Shown here one piece after another: positions 10,507-15,873 of a DNA stretch of 64,000 bases; position 1 is the first letter of the stretch; the number at the start of each line of letters is the position of its first letter. Source of the stretch: Lachnospiraceae bacterium (lineage in GTDB: Bacteria; Bacillota; Clostridia; Lachnospirales; Lachnospiraceae); contig JBOFWM010000063.1 in the NCBI GenBank assembly GCA_051653625.1, positions 9,799 to 73,798 of the forward strand, read 5' to 3'. Below the pieces are notes generated by a model. That model did not search any database and was not told the origin of the DNA. It saw only the letters and a program-made list of their open reading frames with translations. Made by a program: the position numbers and the translations under genes.

Positions 10507-11049
10507 ATGGAAAAAGAAAAAAACACAATTTCAGAAACTGCAAAATTAGTAGGAGTAGAAAATCATGTATTACGATATTGGGAGGAAGAACTTGAGCTAG
10601 ATATTTATAGAAATGAAGTTGGTCATAGATTTTATACATTAAAAGATATAAACACCTTTAAAAAAATTAAAAATTGGAAAGAAAAAGGACTACAATTAAA
10701 AGCGATAAAAGGAATGTTGGGTATACATAAGAATGAAAATATTGTTTCAATTTATCCATATGAAAGAAATGAACATGAAGTAAGTACAGAAGATATAAAA
10801 ATACAAAGACTTCAAAGTATATTAAAAAATATGATGCAAGAGGCCGTTTCAGATGCATTGATTGATTTTAGTGAAGAATTGACAAAAGAAATAAAAGAAG
10901 AAATACGATATGAATTTGAAAGAAAAGAGCTAATGGATCGAGAAATAATGAAAATACAAAATGAAAGGTTGGAAAAACATTTTCAAGAACTTGATACAAG
11001 GTTGAGAGAAGTGAGTGGAAAAAAAAGAAAAAAGCATTCAATATTTTGA
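10507..11049 (+). CDS. MerR-family transcriptional regulator
   Basis: N-terminal HTH ISETAKLVGVENHVLRYWEEEL...GHRFYTLKDI followed by a coiled-coil-like charged C-terminal half. Confidence 0.8.
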   Translation: MEKEKNTISETAKLVGVENHVLRYWEEELELDIYRNEVGHRFYTLKDINTFKKIKNWKEKGLQLKAIKGMLGIHKNENIVSIYPYERNEHEVSTEDIKIQRLQSILKNMMQEAVSDALIDFSEELTKEIKEEIRYEFERKELMDREIMKIQNERLEKHFQELDTRLREVSGKKRKKHSIF

Positions 11050-11067
11050 ATGCTTTTCCTTTTTATT
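11021..11067. terminator. bidirectional terminator shared by the MerR gene and the convergent ferredoxin gene
   Basis: Perfect 11-bp stem aaagcattcaa / ttgaatgcttt flanked by an A-run upstream and a T-rich run downstream. Confidence 0.65.
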
Positions 11068-11236
11068 AACCTTCTGAAATTGCGCCTACAGGACAAGCTC
11101 CTGCGCATGATCCACAGTCGATGCATGTGTCAGCACTGATTTCAAATTGAGAATCTCCTTGGCTGATTGCGTTAACTGGACATTGAGATTCACATGCTCC
11201 ACAACTTACGCATGAGTCACTAATTACATATGCCAT
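11066..11236 (-). CDS. fdx: clostridial-type 2x[4Fe-4S] ferredoxin (56 aa; below the ORF-track size cutoff)
   Basis: Hand translation gives MAYVISDSCVSCGACESQCPVNAISQGDSQFEISADTCIDCGSCAGACPVGAISEG, with two CxxCxxCxxxCP motifs. aaaaggagg lies 8 nt upstream of the ATG. Confidence 0.9.
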   Translation of the reverse strand: MAYVISDSCVSCGACESQCPVNAISQGDSQFEISADTCIDCGSCAGACPVGAISEG

Positions 11237-11340: not shown

Positions 11341-12090
11341 TTAACTTTCTAAGCGTCGTGCCTTTATTCCGTTTAAAATCATTTGTTTCTTTTCTGGTAT
11401 AAGTTCTTTGTCCATTGCTGGAAGATCTGCTAATTTATATTTGATACCTAAGCTATCATATTTAGGTTTCCCCATAGTATGGTATGGTAATACATCTAAA
11501 ACTTTAATATTTTTAAACTCGCCGATTGCATATCCTAATTTATATAAATCGTCATCATTATCGGTAAGACCTGGAACAACAACATGACGAATCCACATAG
11601 GAATATTTTTTTCGTTTAAATAAGATGCAAATGCAAGAATTGGATCGTTTGGTTGTGCTGTTAATTCTTTATGCTTAATTGGATCGATATGTTTAATATC
11701 AAGCATAATTAGATCAGTTAAAGAGAGAAGTTTGTTTAATTTTTCCATCCATTCACTATCTTCTGGATAAAAACAAATTCCAGAAGTATCAATACATGTA
11801 TGAATATTCTCTTTTTTTGCAAGCATAAACAATTCAATTAAAAAATCAACTTGTAATAATGGTTCACCGCCAGTAACAGTAATACCACCACCGTTGTAAA
11901 AGCCAATATTACGCATATACTGCTCGATAATATAGGAAGGCTCTAAAAGTGTGCCACCATCTAAATTCCAAGTATCTGGGTTATGACAATAAGCACAACG
12001 CATAGGGCAGCCTTGTGTAAAGACTACATATCGCACGCCAGGGCCATCTACTGTGCCAAAACTTTCTAAAGAGTGAATTTTTCCTTTCAT
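11341..12090 (-). CDS. pflA: pyruvate formate-lyase activating enzyme (radical SAM)
   Basis: MKGKIHSLESFGTVDGPGVRYVVFTQGCPMRCAYCHNPDTW is the glycyl-radical activase N-terminus, including CxxxCxxC. ATG 12090 is preceded by gaaaggag. The ORF-track start at 12126 lies inside the upstream terminator. Confidence 0.92.
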   Translation of the reverse strand: MKGKIHSLESFGTVDGPGVRYVVFTQGCPMRCAYCHNPDTWNLDGGTLLEPSYIIEQYMRNIGFYNGGGITVTGGEPLLQVDFLIELFMLAKKENIHTCIDTSGICFYPEDSEWMEKLNKLLSLTDLIMLDIKHIDPIKHKELTAQPNDPILAFASYLNEKNIPMWIRHVVVPGLTDNDDDLYKLGYAIGEFKNIKVLDVLPYHTMGKPKYDSLGIKYKLADLPAMDKELIPEKKQMILNGIKARRLES

Positions 12091-12112: not shown

Positions 12113-12142
12113 ATGAAAAAAACCACACCGCAGGGTGTGGTT
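12113..12142 (-). terminator. intrinsic terminator between the glycyl-radical subunit gene and pflA
   Basis: On the minus strand: AACCACACC-cugc-GGUGUGGUU (9-bp stem) followed by UUUUUU. It lies 23 nt upstream of the pflA start. Confidence 0.75.
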
Positions 12143-12156
12143 TTCTTTTGTAGTTA

Positions 12157-12399
12157 CTATACCGCTGAATGGAAAGTACGTGAAATTACATCTGCTTGTT
12201 GTTCTGGTGTTAATTTGATGAAATTAACAGCATATCCTGAAACACGGATAGTTAATTGAGGATAATTTTCTGGGTGTGCTTTTGCATCTTCTAACATTTC
12301 TCTATTTAAAACATTAACGTTAAGATGATGTCCACCTTTTTCTGAATATCCATCTAATAAAGACACTAAATTATCGATTTGAGCGTTACTTGTTGACAT
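12157..12399 (-). CDS. stand-alone glycyl-radical domain protein (GrcA/YfiD-like; the detached C-terminal domain of PFL)
   Basis: 80 aa: ..[56 protein letters not shown] contains the RVSGY glycyl-radical motif. It has its own RBS (aaaaggag, then 8 nt, then ATG). Confidence 0.9.
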
Positions 12400-12416: not shown

Positions 12417-12635
12417 TTATTTGTTTTGTGTATAGTCATCAAGACCTTGTTGTAAAGTAGGAACACTGCATGCTAAAGGAGTACGAGAACAATCGGTACA
12501 ACCCATAGTATGAACTTCTTTAGTAGTATTGGTCGATTCATTTACGTTGACATTTACATGTCCTATGCCTTTTTCCATACCAGAATCAAGCATTGCAACT
12601 AAATCATCAATCATTTGTTTTTCATTCATAATCAT
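12417..12635 (-). CDS. small Cys-rich paralog of the N-terminal part of the glycyl-radical domain; unknown function
   Basis: 70-72 aa. aggaaaggag precedes ATG 12635 and ATG 12629, and the second has better spacing. [25 protein letters not shown] matches the 80-aa protein at 14 of 25 positions. The tail has [15 protein letters not shown] and no RVSGY. Confidence 0.65.
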
Positions 12636-12653: not shown

Positions 12654-14693
12654 TTAGTTGTTTAAATCTAGTTCTAAATCACCAACAAATACTTGGTCTT
12701 CTTTTCCAAGAGCACCTGGAATGATAGTAAATGTATTAGAGATACCATCTTGTGAATCGTTAAATGGAAGTTTTGATACAGATGATAATGAAGCAACAGC
12801 TCCTTTTGTATCACGTCCATGCATTGGGTTAGCACCTGGAGCAAAAGGTTGACCCATTTTACGTCCATCAGGTGTAGAACCTGTAGCTTTTCCATAAACA
12901 ACGTTTGAAGTAATTGTTAATACAGACATTGTTGGGAAACCATTTCTATAAGTATGGTGTCTTCTGATCATAGTCATGAATTTAGAAACTAATTCTTTTG
13001 CAATCATATCTACACGATCATCATCATTACCATATTTAGGGAATTCGCCAGTTGTTTCGAAATCAACAATGATTCCGTCTTCGTCTCTGATTGGTTTTAC
13101 AGTTGCATATTTGATTGCTGATAATGAATCGGCAACAACTGAAAGACCAGCGATACCTGTTGCAAAATAACGAAGAACATCTCTATCATGTAAAGCCATT
13201 TGAGCTCTTTCATAAGAGTATTTATCATGCATGTAGTGAATTACATTTAATGTATTAACATAAACATCTGCTAACCATTCCATCATATCTTCAAATGCAG
13301 TAACAACTGTAGCATAATCTAATACATCACCTTCATATTTACGATATCTTGGACCAACTTGTTTTTTAGTTTTTTCATCGATACCACCATTTAAAGAATA
13401 TAATAAACATTTTGCTAAGTTAGCTCTAGCTCCGAAGAATTGCATTTCTTTACCAACACGCATTGAAGATACACAACAAGCAATTGCATAGTCATCACCA
13501 TGAGTTACTCTCATTAAATCATCGTTTTCGTATTGAATAGAAGATGTTTGGATTGACATTTTTGCACAATATTTTTTGAAGTTTGCTGGTAACTTAGTTG
13601 ACCAAAGTACAGTTAAGTTTGGTTCTGGAGCAGGTCCTAAGTTTGTTAAAGTGTGAAGTACACGGAAGCTTGTTTTAGAAACTAAAGGACGTCCGTCGAT
13701 ACCTACACCACCAATAGTTTCAGTAACCCAAACTGGATCTCCTGAGAATAATTGATTGTATTCTGGTGTACGAGCAAATTTAATTAATCTTAATTTCATT
13801 ACAAAATGATCAATAAATTCTTGAACTTGTTCTTCAGTGAATGTTCCGTTTTGGATATCTCTTTCAGCATAAATATCAAGGAATGTAGAAGTACGTCCTA
13901 AAGACATAGCAGCTCCATTTTGTTCTTTAACTGCAGCTAAATAACCAAAGTATGTTGCTTGAATTGCTTCTTGAACATTAGTTGCTGGTTTAGAAATGTC
14001 ACATCCGTAAGACGCAGCCATTTGTTTCATCATTTTAAGAGCAACAATTTGTTCTGAAATTTCTTCACGAAGACGCATAACATCATCAGTCATAACACGT
14101 CCTGTAGAATCTTTTTGTTCTAATTTGTCTTCGATAAGTCTATCAATACCATATAAAGCGATACGTCTGTAATCACCAATAATACGTCCACGTCCGTAAG
14201 CATCTGGAAGACCTGTGATAATATGAGAAGAACGACAAGCTCTCATATCAGCATTGTATGCATCAAAACATCCAGCATTATGAGTTTTTCTGTGTGTAGA
14301 GAAAAATTCACTAATTTCAGGATCTACTGTATATCCGTTATCTTCACATGCTTTTTCTGCCATACGAATACCACCATATGGTTGCATAGAACGTTTAAAA
14401 GGCTTGTCTGTTTGAAATCCTACAATTGTTTCTTTTGATTTATCAAGATATCCTGGTCCGTGTGAAGTAATAGTAGAAACAACTTTAGTATCCATATCAA
14501 GGACACCGCCTGCTTCTCTTTCCTTCTTTGATAAATCCATAACTTGGGCCCATAAATCTGTTGTGTTTTGTGTAGGTCCTGCTAAGAAAGAATCATCACC
14601 TTCATAAGGTGTATAATTTTTTTGAATAAAATCTCTAACATTGATTTCACTTTCCCATTTGCCGCCTACAAAATTTGTCCACTCTGGTTTCAT
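12654..14693 (-). CDS. pflB: pyruvate formate-lyase (formate C-acetyltransferase) catalytic core lacking the glycyl-radical domain
   Basis: 679 aa, colinear with PflB. It includes the Cys-Cys loop [27 protein letters not shown] and [20 protein letters not shown], and ends about 80 aa short of the canonical length. It has an RBS (aggagg) and a consensus promoter upstream. Confidence 0.92.
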
Positions 14694-14749: not shown

Positions 14750-14778
14750 ATTATATCTTTGATTGTTCATGACGTCAA
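14750..14778 (-). promoter_or_regulatory. sigma-A-type promoter of pflB
   Basis: On the minus strand: TTGACG, a 17-nt spacer, then TATAAT. It lies about 50 nt upstream of the pflB ATG. Confidence 0.7.
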
Positions 14779-14880: not shown

Positions 14881-15069
14881 ATGACAGTATCTAAAGAAAC
14901 AACAATAGGTGAAGTGTTACGTCAAAAACCATCGGCAGCAGCTGTATTGATTGGAGTGGGAATGCATTGTGTGGGTTGTCCATCAGCACAATCAGAAACA
15001 ATTGAAGAAGCTGCAATGGTCCATGGAATGGATGTTGAAGAATTGATGAATAAAATTTTAGAAGCATAA
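14881..15069 (+). CDS. DUF1858 / hybrid-cluster-protein-associated redox disulfide family small protein
   Basis: 62 aa: [48 protein letters not shown], with a CxxC motif typical of this family. Confidence 0.7.
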
Positions 15070-15107
15070 AAAAATCCAGATTGTTTATTAGCAATCTGGA
15101 TTTTTTT
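15068..15107. terminator. bidirectional terminator between the DUF1858 gene and mecA
   Basis: Perfect 11-bp stem aatccagattg / caatctggatt flanked by an A-run and a T-run. Confidence 0.8.
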
Positions 15108-15873
15108 AAATTTTGTTTAAATTTTGAAGCGCATTATCTTTTATTAAAACATCATAATATTCTTCAAAAAATGCTTCTGATGCAGTAGTATTTTTTTCTA
15201 GGTGTCCATATTCTGACAAGGTGTTACAAATTTTATTGAATTCAGAAGGTGTGTGGTGAGATTTTGATACAATAAGCCAGTATTTACCAGTTTTAATATT
15301 TTTGTATAAAGAGTTAATTCCATCATAATAAGAGGATAGAATATGACTAACTCTTGTAATATGATCAATGGAAGTAAAAGAAAAATAACGAATAATTTCA
15401 AAATCCGCTAAAGTGTCCTCGGTAGAAAGTTCGTCTTTATTATCCAATTCTTCTGTTTGAGAAATTATATCTTCTTTCGCCTCTAATGTATTGTTTTTGG
15501 TAGATACTTTTTTAAATAAATCTAAAATATCATCTGCACCTGTTAAAGAAGATTCTACAATTGCATCATCTGATTGAGTGTGAACAGATGGCGCAAACTT
15601 AGAAAAACGAGTGTCTAGTTCTTCTGGATCTTCAACTTTTGTAATAATAAGAACAATACAATCGCTATTTAAAGGGATTGCTTCAATCATAAGAGGAATA
15701 TCCTCTGCTTCAAATCCAAATTTTTGATTTGCTTGTTGCATCATATCACGAAATAAATCTTTTGCTTTTTCGGTTCCATATGCTAATTCGCTTAATTTTA
15801 GCTCTCTATCAGCTAAGTCTGCTTTCGTTAAGGTACATTTAATTTGGTGGTCATTTACTTTTTCTATTTTCAT
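15106..15873 (-). CDS. mecA: adaptor protein MecA (ClpC adaptor)
   Basis: MKIEKVNDHQIKCTLTKADLADRELKLSEL.. N-domain, an acidic linker and a C-terminal domain with the same architecture as B. subtilis MecA. Confidence 0.85.
   Translation of the reverse strand: MKIEKVNDHQIKCTLTKADLADRELKLSELAYGTEKAKDLFRDMMQQANQKFGFEAEDIPLMIEAIPLNSDCIVLIITKVEDPEELDTRFSKFAPSVHTQSDDAIVESSLTGADDILDLFKKVSTKNNTLEAKEDIISQTEELDNKDELSTEDTLADFEIIRYFSFTSIDHITRVSHILSSYYDGINSLYKNIKTGKYWLIVSKSHHTPSEFNKICNTLSEYGHLEKNTTASEAFFEEYYDVLIKDNALQNLNKI

Follow-up and report, generated by a model that had tools for sequence, protein, structure and literature searches.

A glycine-less relative of the radical domain's docking segment is encoded beside a split pyruvate formate-lyase in gut Lachnospiraceae

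Pyruvate formate-lyase (PFL) is the central enzyme by which many gut anaerobes turn pyruvate into formate and acetyl-CoA, and its glycyl radical is destroyed by oxygen. To our knowledge, the loading and activation of a detached radical domain on a radical-less PFL have so far been studied only with the damaged Escherichia coli enzyme. Here we describe a small open reading frame (ORF) wedged between the two pieces of a PFL that is split by nature, found in a 64,000-nucleotide stretch of Lachnospiraceae DNA (contig JBOFWM010000063.1; the whole stretch is called the window below). A first-pass annotation of the letters had placed this ORF between the PFL pieces with a Shine-Dalgarno sequence of its own, and it is indeed present there on the minus strand (12635 or 12629 to 12417). 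The features of the locus, in the direction of reading, are the following.

14750 to 14778, minus strand: sigma-70-like promoter (TTGACG-17-TATAAT) upstream of the PFL core gene, with 11 of 12 positions matching, the best site of the region and a consensus match only
12654 to 14693, minus strand: PFL core, 679 amino acids (aa), covering positions 2-669 of the 744 of TIGR01255 and ending before the helix, strand beta10 and the glycine loop
12637 to 12646, minus strand: Shine-Dalgarno sequence of the small ORF, AGGAAAGGAG, 7 nt before ATG 12629
12417 to 12629, minus strand: small ORF, 70 aa (72 aa from ATG 12635), the glycine-less partner of the split PFL
12157 to 12399, minus strand: GrcA3-type glycyl-radical domain with the RVSGY motif, 80 aa (PF01228, E 8.5e-23; NF038360, 152.9 bits)
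12119 to 12144, minus strand: hairpin and U-run resembling an intrinsic terminator, between the GrcA3 gene and pflA (-18.6 kcal/mol, z = -3.2)
11341 to 12090, minus strand: PFL-activating enzyme PflA, 249 aa from ATG 12090 (TIGR02493, 296 bits), downstream in most loci
11066 to 11236, minus strand: 2x[4Fe-4S] ferredoxin, 56 aa, conserved after pflA
11028 to 11059, minus strand: terminator-like hairpin closing the pflA-ferredoxin unit

The PFL core is 63.6% identical to E. coli PflB, with which it aligns as far as GKDDEV-680, and its C-terminal tail is typical of the clade and kept in relatives. Close relatives of the 80-aa radical protein are named "autonomous glycyl radical cofactor GrcA3" by NCBI, and we use this name here. 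No second PFL-like gene was found in the window; this PFL is therefore split, with GrcA3 as the one radical carrier in view. In this locus the 80-aa domain is probably an obligate subunit and not a spare part.

The small ORF has two candidate starts. The sequence AGGAAAGGAG is separated from ATG 12635 by 1 nt and from ATG 12629 by 7 nt. Each of the 81 homologous ORFs compared begins at the methionine equivalent to 12629, and the protein is 70 aa long in public gene calls. Judged by these comparisons the true start is ATG 12629, as the first-pass annotation had preferred, and residues are numbered below from this methionine. The family is large: 1515 clusters are homologous to the protein at E <= 0.01, of which those named at the source are all "hypothetical" and none carries a Pfam domain. 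A collection with one genome per species gave at least 569 confirmed matches, essentially all from Lachnospiraceae (e.g. Acetatifactor, Kineothrix), and a filter-free profile search of 1.84 billion representatives gave 197 clusters at 50% identity. The ORF itself has no match in Pfam at E <= 1, and no dedicated Pfam or NCBIfam model for the family was found. A 1035-aa repeat protein (P0158) that matched the family profile was set aside as a chance match.

The ORF is unbroken in 81 of 81 relatives and its motif is kept down to about 35% identity. The ratio of nonsynonymous to synonymous substitution rates (dN/dS; Nei-Gojobori method, 79 sequences, median of the unsaturated pairs) is 0.095 for the whole ORF, as compared with 0.063 for GrcA3, and it is unevenly distributed along the protein, which we divide as follows.

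12537 to 12629, minus strand: N-terminal module, residues 1-31, a helix and a GHVNVNV strand homologous to the helix and beta10 of GrcA3 and PFL (dN/dS 0.115)
12516 to 12536, minus strand: variable linker, residues 32-38 (dN/dS 0.58)
12435 to 12515, minus strand: conserved C-terminal module, residues 39-65, with Cys47, Cys54 and the P-T-L..G-L-D signature (dN/dS 0.032)

It is conspicuous that the tail, which has no homology to the radical domain, is the most constrained part of the protein, and this rules out a decaying duplicate. In terms of its sequence evolution, the small ORF is a real, strongly conserved gene under purifying selection. The conservation and dN/dS that the first-pass annotation had proposed to look at across split-PFL loci thus hold for the ORF as a whole; the Cys/His pattern pointed out in it is itself only partly conserved, as described below.

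The likeness of the N-terminal module to the radical subunit, put by eye at 14 of 25 positions in the first-pass annotation, is confirmed by three comparisons. Within the window, tblastn aligns the small ORF to the radical subunit with 14 of 23 residues identical (E 1.9e-4). Residues 3-30 of the NCBIfam GrcA3 model (NF038360) match ORF residues 6-33 with E 8.4e-5, a partial coverage whose score of 22.6 bits is below the cut-off of 158. Finally, a profile of 64 diverse family members was aligned by hhalign to 19 GrcA3 proteins over 33 columns, with a probability of 93.5% and E 2.2e-7. The homology found by hhalign is confined to residues 1-33; nothing is detectable beyond, and there is no glycine loop. 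These residues correspond to a helix followed by a GxGHxNVxV strand, equivalent to residues ~681-709 of E. coli PFL, i.e. the helix before beta10 and beta10 itself. In other words, the docking segment of the radical domain (IDxLVxLLD...GGHHLNVNV) is present, and in its GxGHxNV part Gly23 and His24 are invariant or near-invariant across the family.

What follows the docking segment in a radical domain is absent. The similarity ends before the radical loop, as the first-pass annotation had it: RVSGY is missing, the ORF lacks a radical glycine in an RVxG[FWY] loop, and PF01228 gives no match to it at E <= 1. Gly43 of the ORF is kept only in the close clade and is replaced by K, R, N or S elsewhere. 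The GrcA3 strand is almost invariant, which left a test for substitutions parallel to those of the ORF strand without power. Several by-eye likenesses (VQTMGC to IRVSGY, VPTLEQGLDD, the catalytic IACCVSPM loop, and GDIELDL of the core tail to beta10) are leads only, the hhalign alignment stopping at residue 33. As a separate observation, the core tail FxGD[IL]E[LIV]DL (12657-12692, minus strand) looks by eye like an acidic version of the GxGHVNVDV strand at ORF residues 21-29 and of HLNVNV in GrcA3; loci of the window's type (type A, defined below) may hold three beta10-like strands, the segment being too short for statistics.

The C-terminal module shows a different kind of conservation. In the clade of the window a block of it is invariant; His42, however, is Gln in 25 of the 25 close relatives aligned. 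The first Cys of the C-x2-C-x6-C arrangement is specific to this clade and is lost across the family at 35-50% identity. His24, Cys54 and Pro57 are invariant in the whole family and Asp15, Gly23, Cys47, Ala53, Leu59, Gly62 and Asp64 are nearly so, which gives the signature [DE]C-x(4-7)-AC-x-[VI]-P-[TN]-L-x-x-G-[LI]-D with an acidic tail behind it. Two Cys and no others are near-universal, with a spacing that varies from 1 to 7 residues, and many members have exactly two; the linker in front of the module ranges from about 8 to more than 40 residues. No conserved glycine that PflA might attack was found in the family. Neither a four-ligand Cys (or three Cys plus His) Fe or Fe-S motif nor the ligand pattern of a zinc knuckle or ribbon is seen. 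Since His42 is not conserved and the two family-wide Cys vary in spacing, a self-contained four-ligand metal knuckle is unsupported; His24 is also kept in true radical domains and is therefore probably structural. The H-x3-C-x2-C-x6-C knuckle proposed by the first-pass annotation does not survive this comparison.

Structure prediction adds little to this picture. AlphaFold2, run with 64 family sequences, predicts for the 70-aa protein a helix (residues 3-19), two strands (25-29 and 37-41), a loop with the Cys residues and a second helix (59-68), with a predicted local distance difference test score (pLDDT) of 68.8. With this model, whose pLDDT is only 68.8, Foldseek found nothing in the PDB below E 2.8. 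When PDB sequences were searched with a profile, the matches were helical ones due to chance, with no PFL or GrcA and no HiPIP or rubredoxin among them. The lack of an independent fold match fits a protein that folds on a partner. The core alone, modelled with 38 close homologues, reached a mean pLDDT of 39, and the prediction of its tail is uninformative.

The small ORF is encoded beside a split PFL in 87 of the 87 loci examined, and among these no family member was found away from one. The order core (ending at ~678), ORF, GrcA3 is found in 80 of 80 close loci, with PflA and the ferredoxin usually next, and the distant members of the family (63-129 aa, 35-45% identity) adjoin a split core of 679-700 aa in seven of seven loci. 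The serial order is core, GrcA3, ORF, PflA in loci L085 and L086, and the small ORF persists where pflA is not adjacent. In locus L089 (1965-5227) the genes for the core, the ORF, the radical domain and PflA overlap by 1-4 nt, an arrangement which suggests, as far as gene overlap can, that all four are translationally coupled. The only nearby radical SAM gene of the window is that of the standard 249-aa PflA, which has no SPASM domain, and no SPASM-type maturase, peptidase or exporter was seen among the called genes of the annotated loci read.

Some side observations concern the surroundings of the locus. The hairpin between the GrcA3 gene and pflA suggests that the PFL pieces may be transcribed apart from the activase and the ferredoxin, or above their level. 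The ferredoxin, which follows pflA in most related loci (L004-L083), is probably the physiological reductant of the activase. Divergent from the PFL promoter, and next to this oxygen-sensitive enzyme, lies the gene of a DUF1858 protein of 62 aa with a CxxC motif (14881-15069, plus strand; PF08984, E 2e-21), putatively a small redox-disulfide protein, and the locus is flanked by a MerR-family regulator (10507-11049, plus strand) and a MecA adaptor protein (15106-15873, minus strand). Rfam gave no match in the PFL locus region.

The strongest indication of what the small protein may do comes from loci that lack it. One homologous core (P0440 of locus L087) has no separate ORF and its tail ends in ...LEPDCACCEPNLSVDEAE. 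A metagenome scan with this tail gave 80 loci, and the C-termini of the cores fall into three architectures. In type A, to which the window belongs, the core ends in FxGD[IL]E[LIV]DLxx and a separate gene is present. In type B the core runs straight into a Cys peptide and there is no separate gene (e.g. GDIDVDLECGVDTACSIPNLMEGLDDRN in L131, GDLDLDRLEAECGNMACNIPNIEESIDRE in L132 and GDIDVDLDCGGACFSPTLFEGIDEE in L159); many of these tails read ...EPDCACCEPNL and continue with acidic residues. In type C the core ends in GDIDLDQLGE, with neither a Cys tail nor a separate gene. Positions 48-69 of the ORF-family hidden Markov model align to the extreme end of the type B cores (independent E-values from 1.3e-5 to 6e-4, among 2880 ORFs), and the CxCC-type tails match the ORF motif by pattern only.

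The separate gene was searched for on both strands of the 155 loci that had enough downstream sequence. A core tail without Cys was accompanied by a separate gene in 88 loci, and a core tail with two or more Cys by no separate gene in 53; tails with a single Cys (2 loci) likewise had none, and in 12 loci, i.e. type C, both the Cys and the gene were absent. The combination of a tail carrying two or more Cys with a separate gene was not seen in any locus (0). The loci were sampled by two pattern-driven scans, and these counts should not be read as unbiased frequencies. In 154 of the 155 the core is followed by a GrcA3-type radical domain. Types A and B are intermingled in a crude neighbour-joining tree built on core residues 301-668; L084 (type A), for instance, is the sister of L132, L158 and L160 (type B), and type C is nested among the Cys-tailed cores. 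The alternation of a separate gene with a fused tail is a "Rosetta stone" pattern, which argues that the Cys peptide is the functional unit and that it acts on the core near the radical-domain dock. The helix-strand module of the ORF can evidently be replaced by a covalent link, so that it is most simply a tether.

Two further points concern particular tails. In the type C loci (L135, L138, L140-L145, L147, L150, L156 and L161-L171), which come from a high-GC organism, an 83-aa radical domain follows the core, an ORF-family gene is absent within 3 kb, and PflA lies about 1.8 kb further on or out of view; the Cys module is in these loci either dispensable or encoded elsewhere. The Cys-tailed cores of L136, L137, L139 and L154 run past LDCGCCE into a basic tail of about 35 residues (...YMTPLIKKTQKKTADENTYTKL). 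Two long cores, the 821-aa P0440 and the 805-aa P0395, were considered as fusions with the small ORF and rejected; the extra length of P0440 is an internal repeat of residues ~360-490, probably an artefact of assembly.

The interpretation leans on what is known of the damaged E. coli enzyme. E. coli PFL is cleaved by oxygen at Gly734 and its activity is restored by the spare-part protein YfiD (GrcA), residues 61-127 of which duplicate residues 693-759 of PFL, beta10 included (PMC8683613). The cleaved PFL is sensitive to proteases (PMC8683613). Residues 696-733, i.e. beta10 and half of the loop, are left on the cleaved enzyme and were proposed by Andorfer et al. (2021) to be a recognition element that must swing out; in a truncated PFL(1-695), the binding of YfiD was too weak to measure and activation was 32-fold lower (PMC8683613).

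The reading we favour, and hold only tentatively, is that the small ORF encodes a non-radical accessory subunit of the naturally split PFL, a "pseudo glycyl-radical domain" which would dock on the core, guard it, promote the loading of GrcA3 and then yield its place. The core would correspond to the truncated PFL, GrcA3 to YfiD without its disordered N-terminus, and the 70-aa protein, or the Cys tail of type B, to the beta10 "stump"; the small protein would thus be a free-standing counterpart of residues 696-733 on the oxygen-cleaved E. coli enzyme. It would be an exchangeable placeholder and recognition element at the same time, filling the beta10 slot and the glycine-loop cavity of the radical-less core, with the helix-strand module as the tether that places the Cys peptide at the dock. 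It may protect or stabilise the core and promote the loading and activation of GrcA3, which would then displace it. The Cys pair would probably be a redox-active dithiol, e.g. one that guards the catalytic Cys-Cys loop or quenches stray radicals, rather than a self-contained metal site. The first of the three roles offered by the first-pass annotation, a placeholder at the docking site, is in essence this reading, and it is the one we retain: the homologous part is precisely the helix and beta10, and the E. coli stump, which promotes loading of the spare-part protein, provides a precedent (PMC8683613).

Several observations weigh against it. After H-x-N-V the ORF strand departs from the invariant HLNVNV of GrcA3, so the small protein need not fill the identical slot. 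In the fused lineages the Cys peptide stays on a core to which GrcA3 must also bind, and it may be a permanent resident. No core cysteine was found that is present with the Cys module and lost without it. Finally, in 12 of the 155 split-PFL loci the available sequence shows no Cys tail and no separate gene; the module is accordingly dispensable for catalysis, and to call the small protein an essential chaperone would be too strong.

The second of these observations leads to the rival that survives best, which we consider possible but rather doubtful: in the holoenzyme the protein, or the fused tail, would remain in place alongside GrcA3, next to the radical domain, as a regulatory or protective subunit whose dithiol controls the radical. 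It could act as a built-in "deactivase" that reduces a glycyl or thiyl radical once oxygen gets in or the loop swings outwards, or it could gate the opening of the radical domain. Such residence is suggested by the fused lineages, in which a core that must hold GrcA3 carries the Cys peptide covalently, while the overlapping genes of L089 hint at co-production and a Cys spacing of 1-7 suits a dithiol/disulfide couple better than a metal site. Similar roles have been proposed for HPAD-gamma and for the small subunits of BSS and MASS (PMC13450708). However, the conserved GxGHxNV strand implies the same beta10 environment as that of GrcA3, which makes simultaneous binding awkward, and a thiol at such a place would be prone to quench the working glycyl radical all the time.

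A more far-reaching reading, which we regard as unlikely when taken as a whole, is that of a PFL in three parts: a permanent barrel, which is the core, a disposable GrcA3 cartridge and a glycine-less pseudo-cartridge. The dithiol of the latter would plug and guard the empty or opened active site, quench the radical before oxygen cleaves the backbone and shield the catalytic Cys pair, and the pseudo-cartridge would then pass the dock to a fresh GrcA3 cartridge. If true, this would be a hard-wired management of oxygen damage in a glycyl radical enzyme, and the small proteins would form a new class of accessory module derived from the radical domain itself.

That the small protein binds a metal or an Fe-S cluster, like BSS beta/gamma, HPAD gamma (HiPIP-like [4Fe-4S]) or MASS delta (rubredoxin-like Fe), is improbable. 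Cys-rich small subunits are a known pattern in other glycyl radical enzymes, the clade of the window combines C-x2-C-x6-C with the invariant His24, and some fused tails have three to five Cys (e.g. DCACCEPN and VDCACCADASAGCYC). On the family level, however, only two Cys remain, at a spacing of 1 to 7, His42 is not conserved and His24 is probably structural; no match to HiPIP or rubredoxin was found in sequence or, with a model of modest confidence, in fold, and a site completed by a second copy or by residues of a partner, as this explanation would have it, finds no co-varying Cys in the core. The redox or metal sensor of the first-pass annotation is a conceivable role, although the argument from the metal knuckle is weakened.

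The annotation's remaining suggestion, that a PFL-derived segment presents the Cys peptide as a ribosomal substrate to PflA or another radical SAM enzyme, is very improbable: a small protein with a conserved Cys-containing C-terminal peptide and, in many loci, an adjacent radical SAM gene may invite it, but the 249-aa PflA is of the ordinary activase kind, lacks a SPASM domain and would find no conserved Gly to act upon, no peptidase or exporter is among the called genes of the annotated loci read, the gene persists where pflA is not adjacent, and the motif is also the C-terminal tail of a metabolic enzyme of ~700 aa. A non-functional remnant, left either by the original PFL C-terminus or by a radical-domain gene that was partly duplicated, might be expected to look chimeric, with an N-terminus that duplicates GrcA3 and a place exactly at the split point, yet with an ORF intact in 81 of 81 relatives, a dN/dS of 0.03 in its non-homologous tail, a motif conserved to ~35% identity and the same motif kept fused to the core in other lineages, it is hardly credible.

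On the sequence evidence, the small ORF is a previously undescribed third component of a two-piece PFL in gut Lachnospiraceae. The first-pass annotation knew of no described equivalent and we have found none published: the searchable open-access text on GrcA3, split or truncated PFL and PFL small subunits held nothing relevant. In a review of June 2026, HPAD, BSS and MASS are the sole enzymes for which accessory small subunits are listed, and formate lyases the sole ones with spare parts; split PFLs do not appear in it (PMC13450708). The locus combines these known ideas, i.e. spare-part radical domains and accessory subunits of glycyl radical enzymes, in a form not described for formate lyases. 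It represents the E. coli spare-part situation in a form that is natural and fixed in the genes, widespread in gut Lachnospiraceae, with an unannotated extra component that looks built for the loading or the guarding step. The core, GrcA3 and the 70-aa protein, together with PflA and the ferredoxin, would make a clean three-protein system for the study of spare-part recognition. If our favoured reading is true, formate lyases would have their first reported accessory subunit, and it would seem that many "autonomous cofactor GrcA3" proteins are obligate subunits of truncated PFLs and not spares.

It remains to compare the small protein with the systems it resembles. Like the autonomous glycyl radical cofactors (E. 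coli GrcA/YfiD, phage T4 Y06I and the NCBIfam families GrcA2 and GrcA3), it is small and free-standing, its gene accompanies those of PFL and PflA, and it has the helix and the beta10 docking segment in common with the PFL C-terminus; presumably it binds the PFL barrel. Unlike them, it has no RVSGY, no conserved glycine and no Pfam Gly_radical domain, so that it cannot carry the radical, and it always co-occurs with a true GrcA3 instead of replacing it. With residues 696-733 of E. coli PFL it shares beta10 and a stretch that ends before the radical glycine, and both duplicate the strand of the spare part. The E. coli segment, however, is a by-product of damage that stays covalently attached, whereas here we find a separate, genetically encoded protein or a dedicated tail of the core; the conserved Cys-pair peptide has no E. 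coli counterpart, and that the two are functionally equivalent is our inference.

The third comparison is with the accessory small subunits of other glycyl radical enzymes (BSS beta/gamma, HPAD gamma and MASS beta/gamma/delta), which are likewise small, contain Cys, are encoded with the catalytic subunit and are believed to influence the radical domain or the access to the active site. Those of BSS and MASS are thought to control movements of the radical domain, and a protective, radical-reducing role was proposed for HPAD-gamma without evidence (PMC13450708). They are HiPIP- or rubredoxin-like proteins with four-ligand Fe sites of unclear function (PMC13450708), unlike the small ORF with its two conserved Cys, for which no such fold match was found. 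The other difference lies in origin: the subunits of BSS, HPAD and MASS are unrelated to the radical domain, whereas the small-ORF family is partly derived from the radical domain itself.

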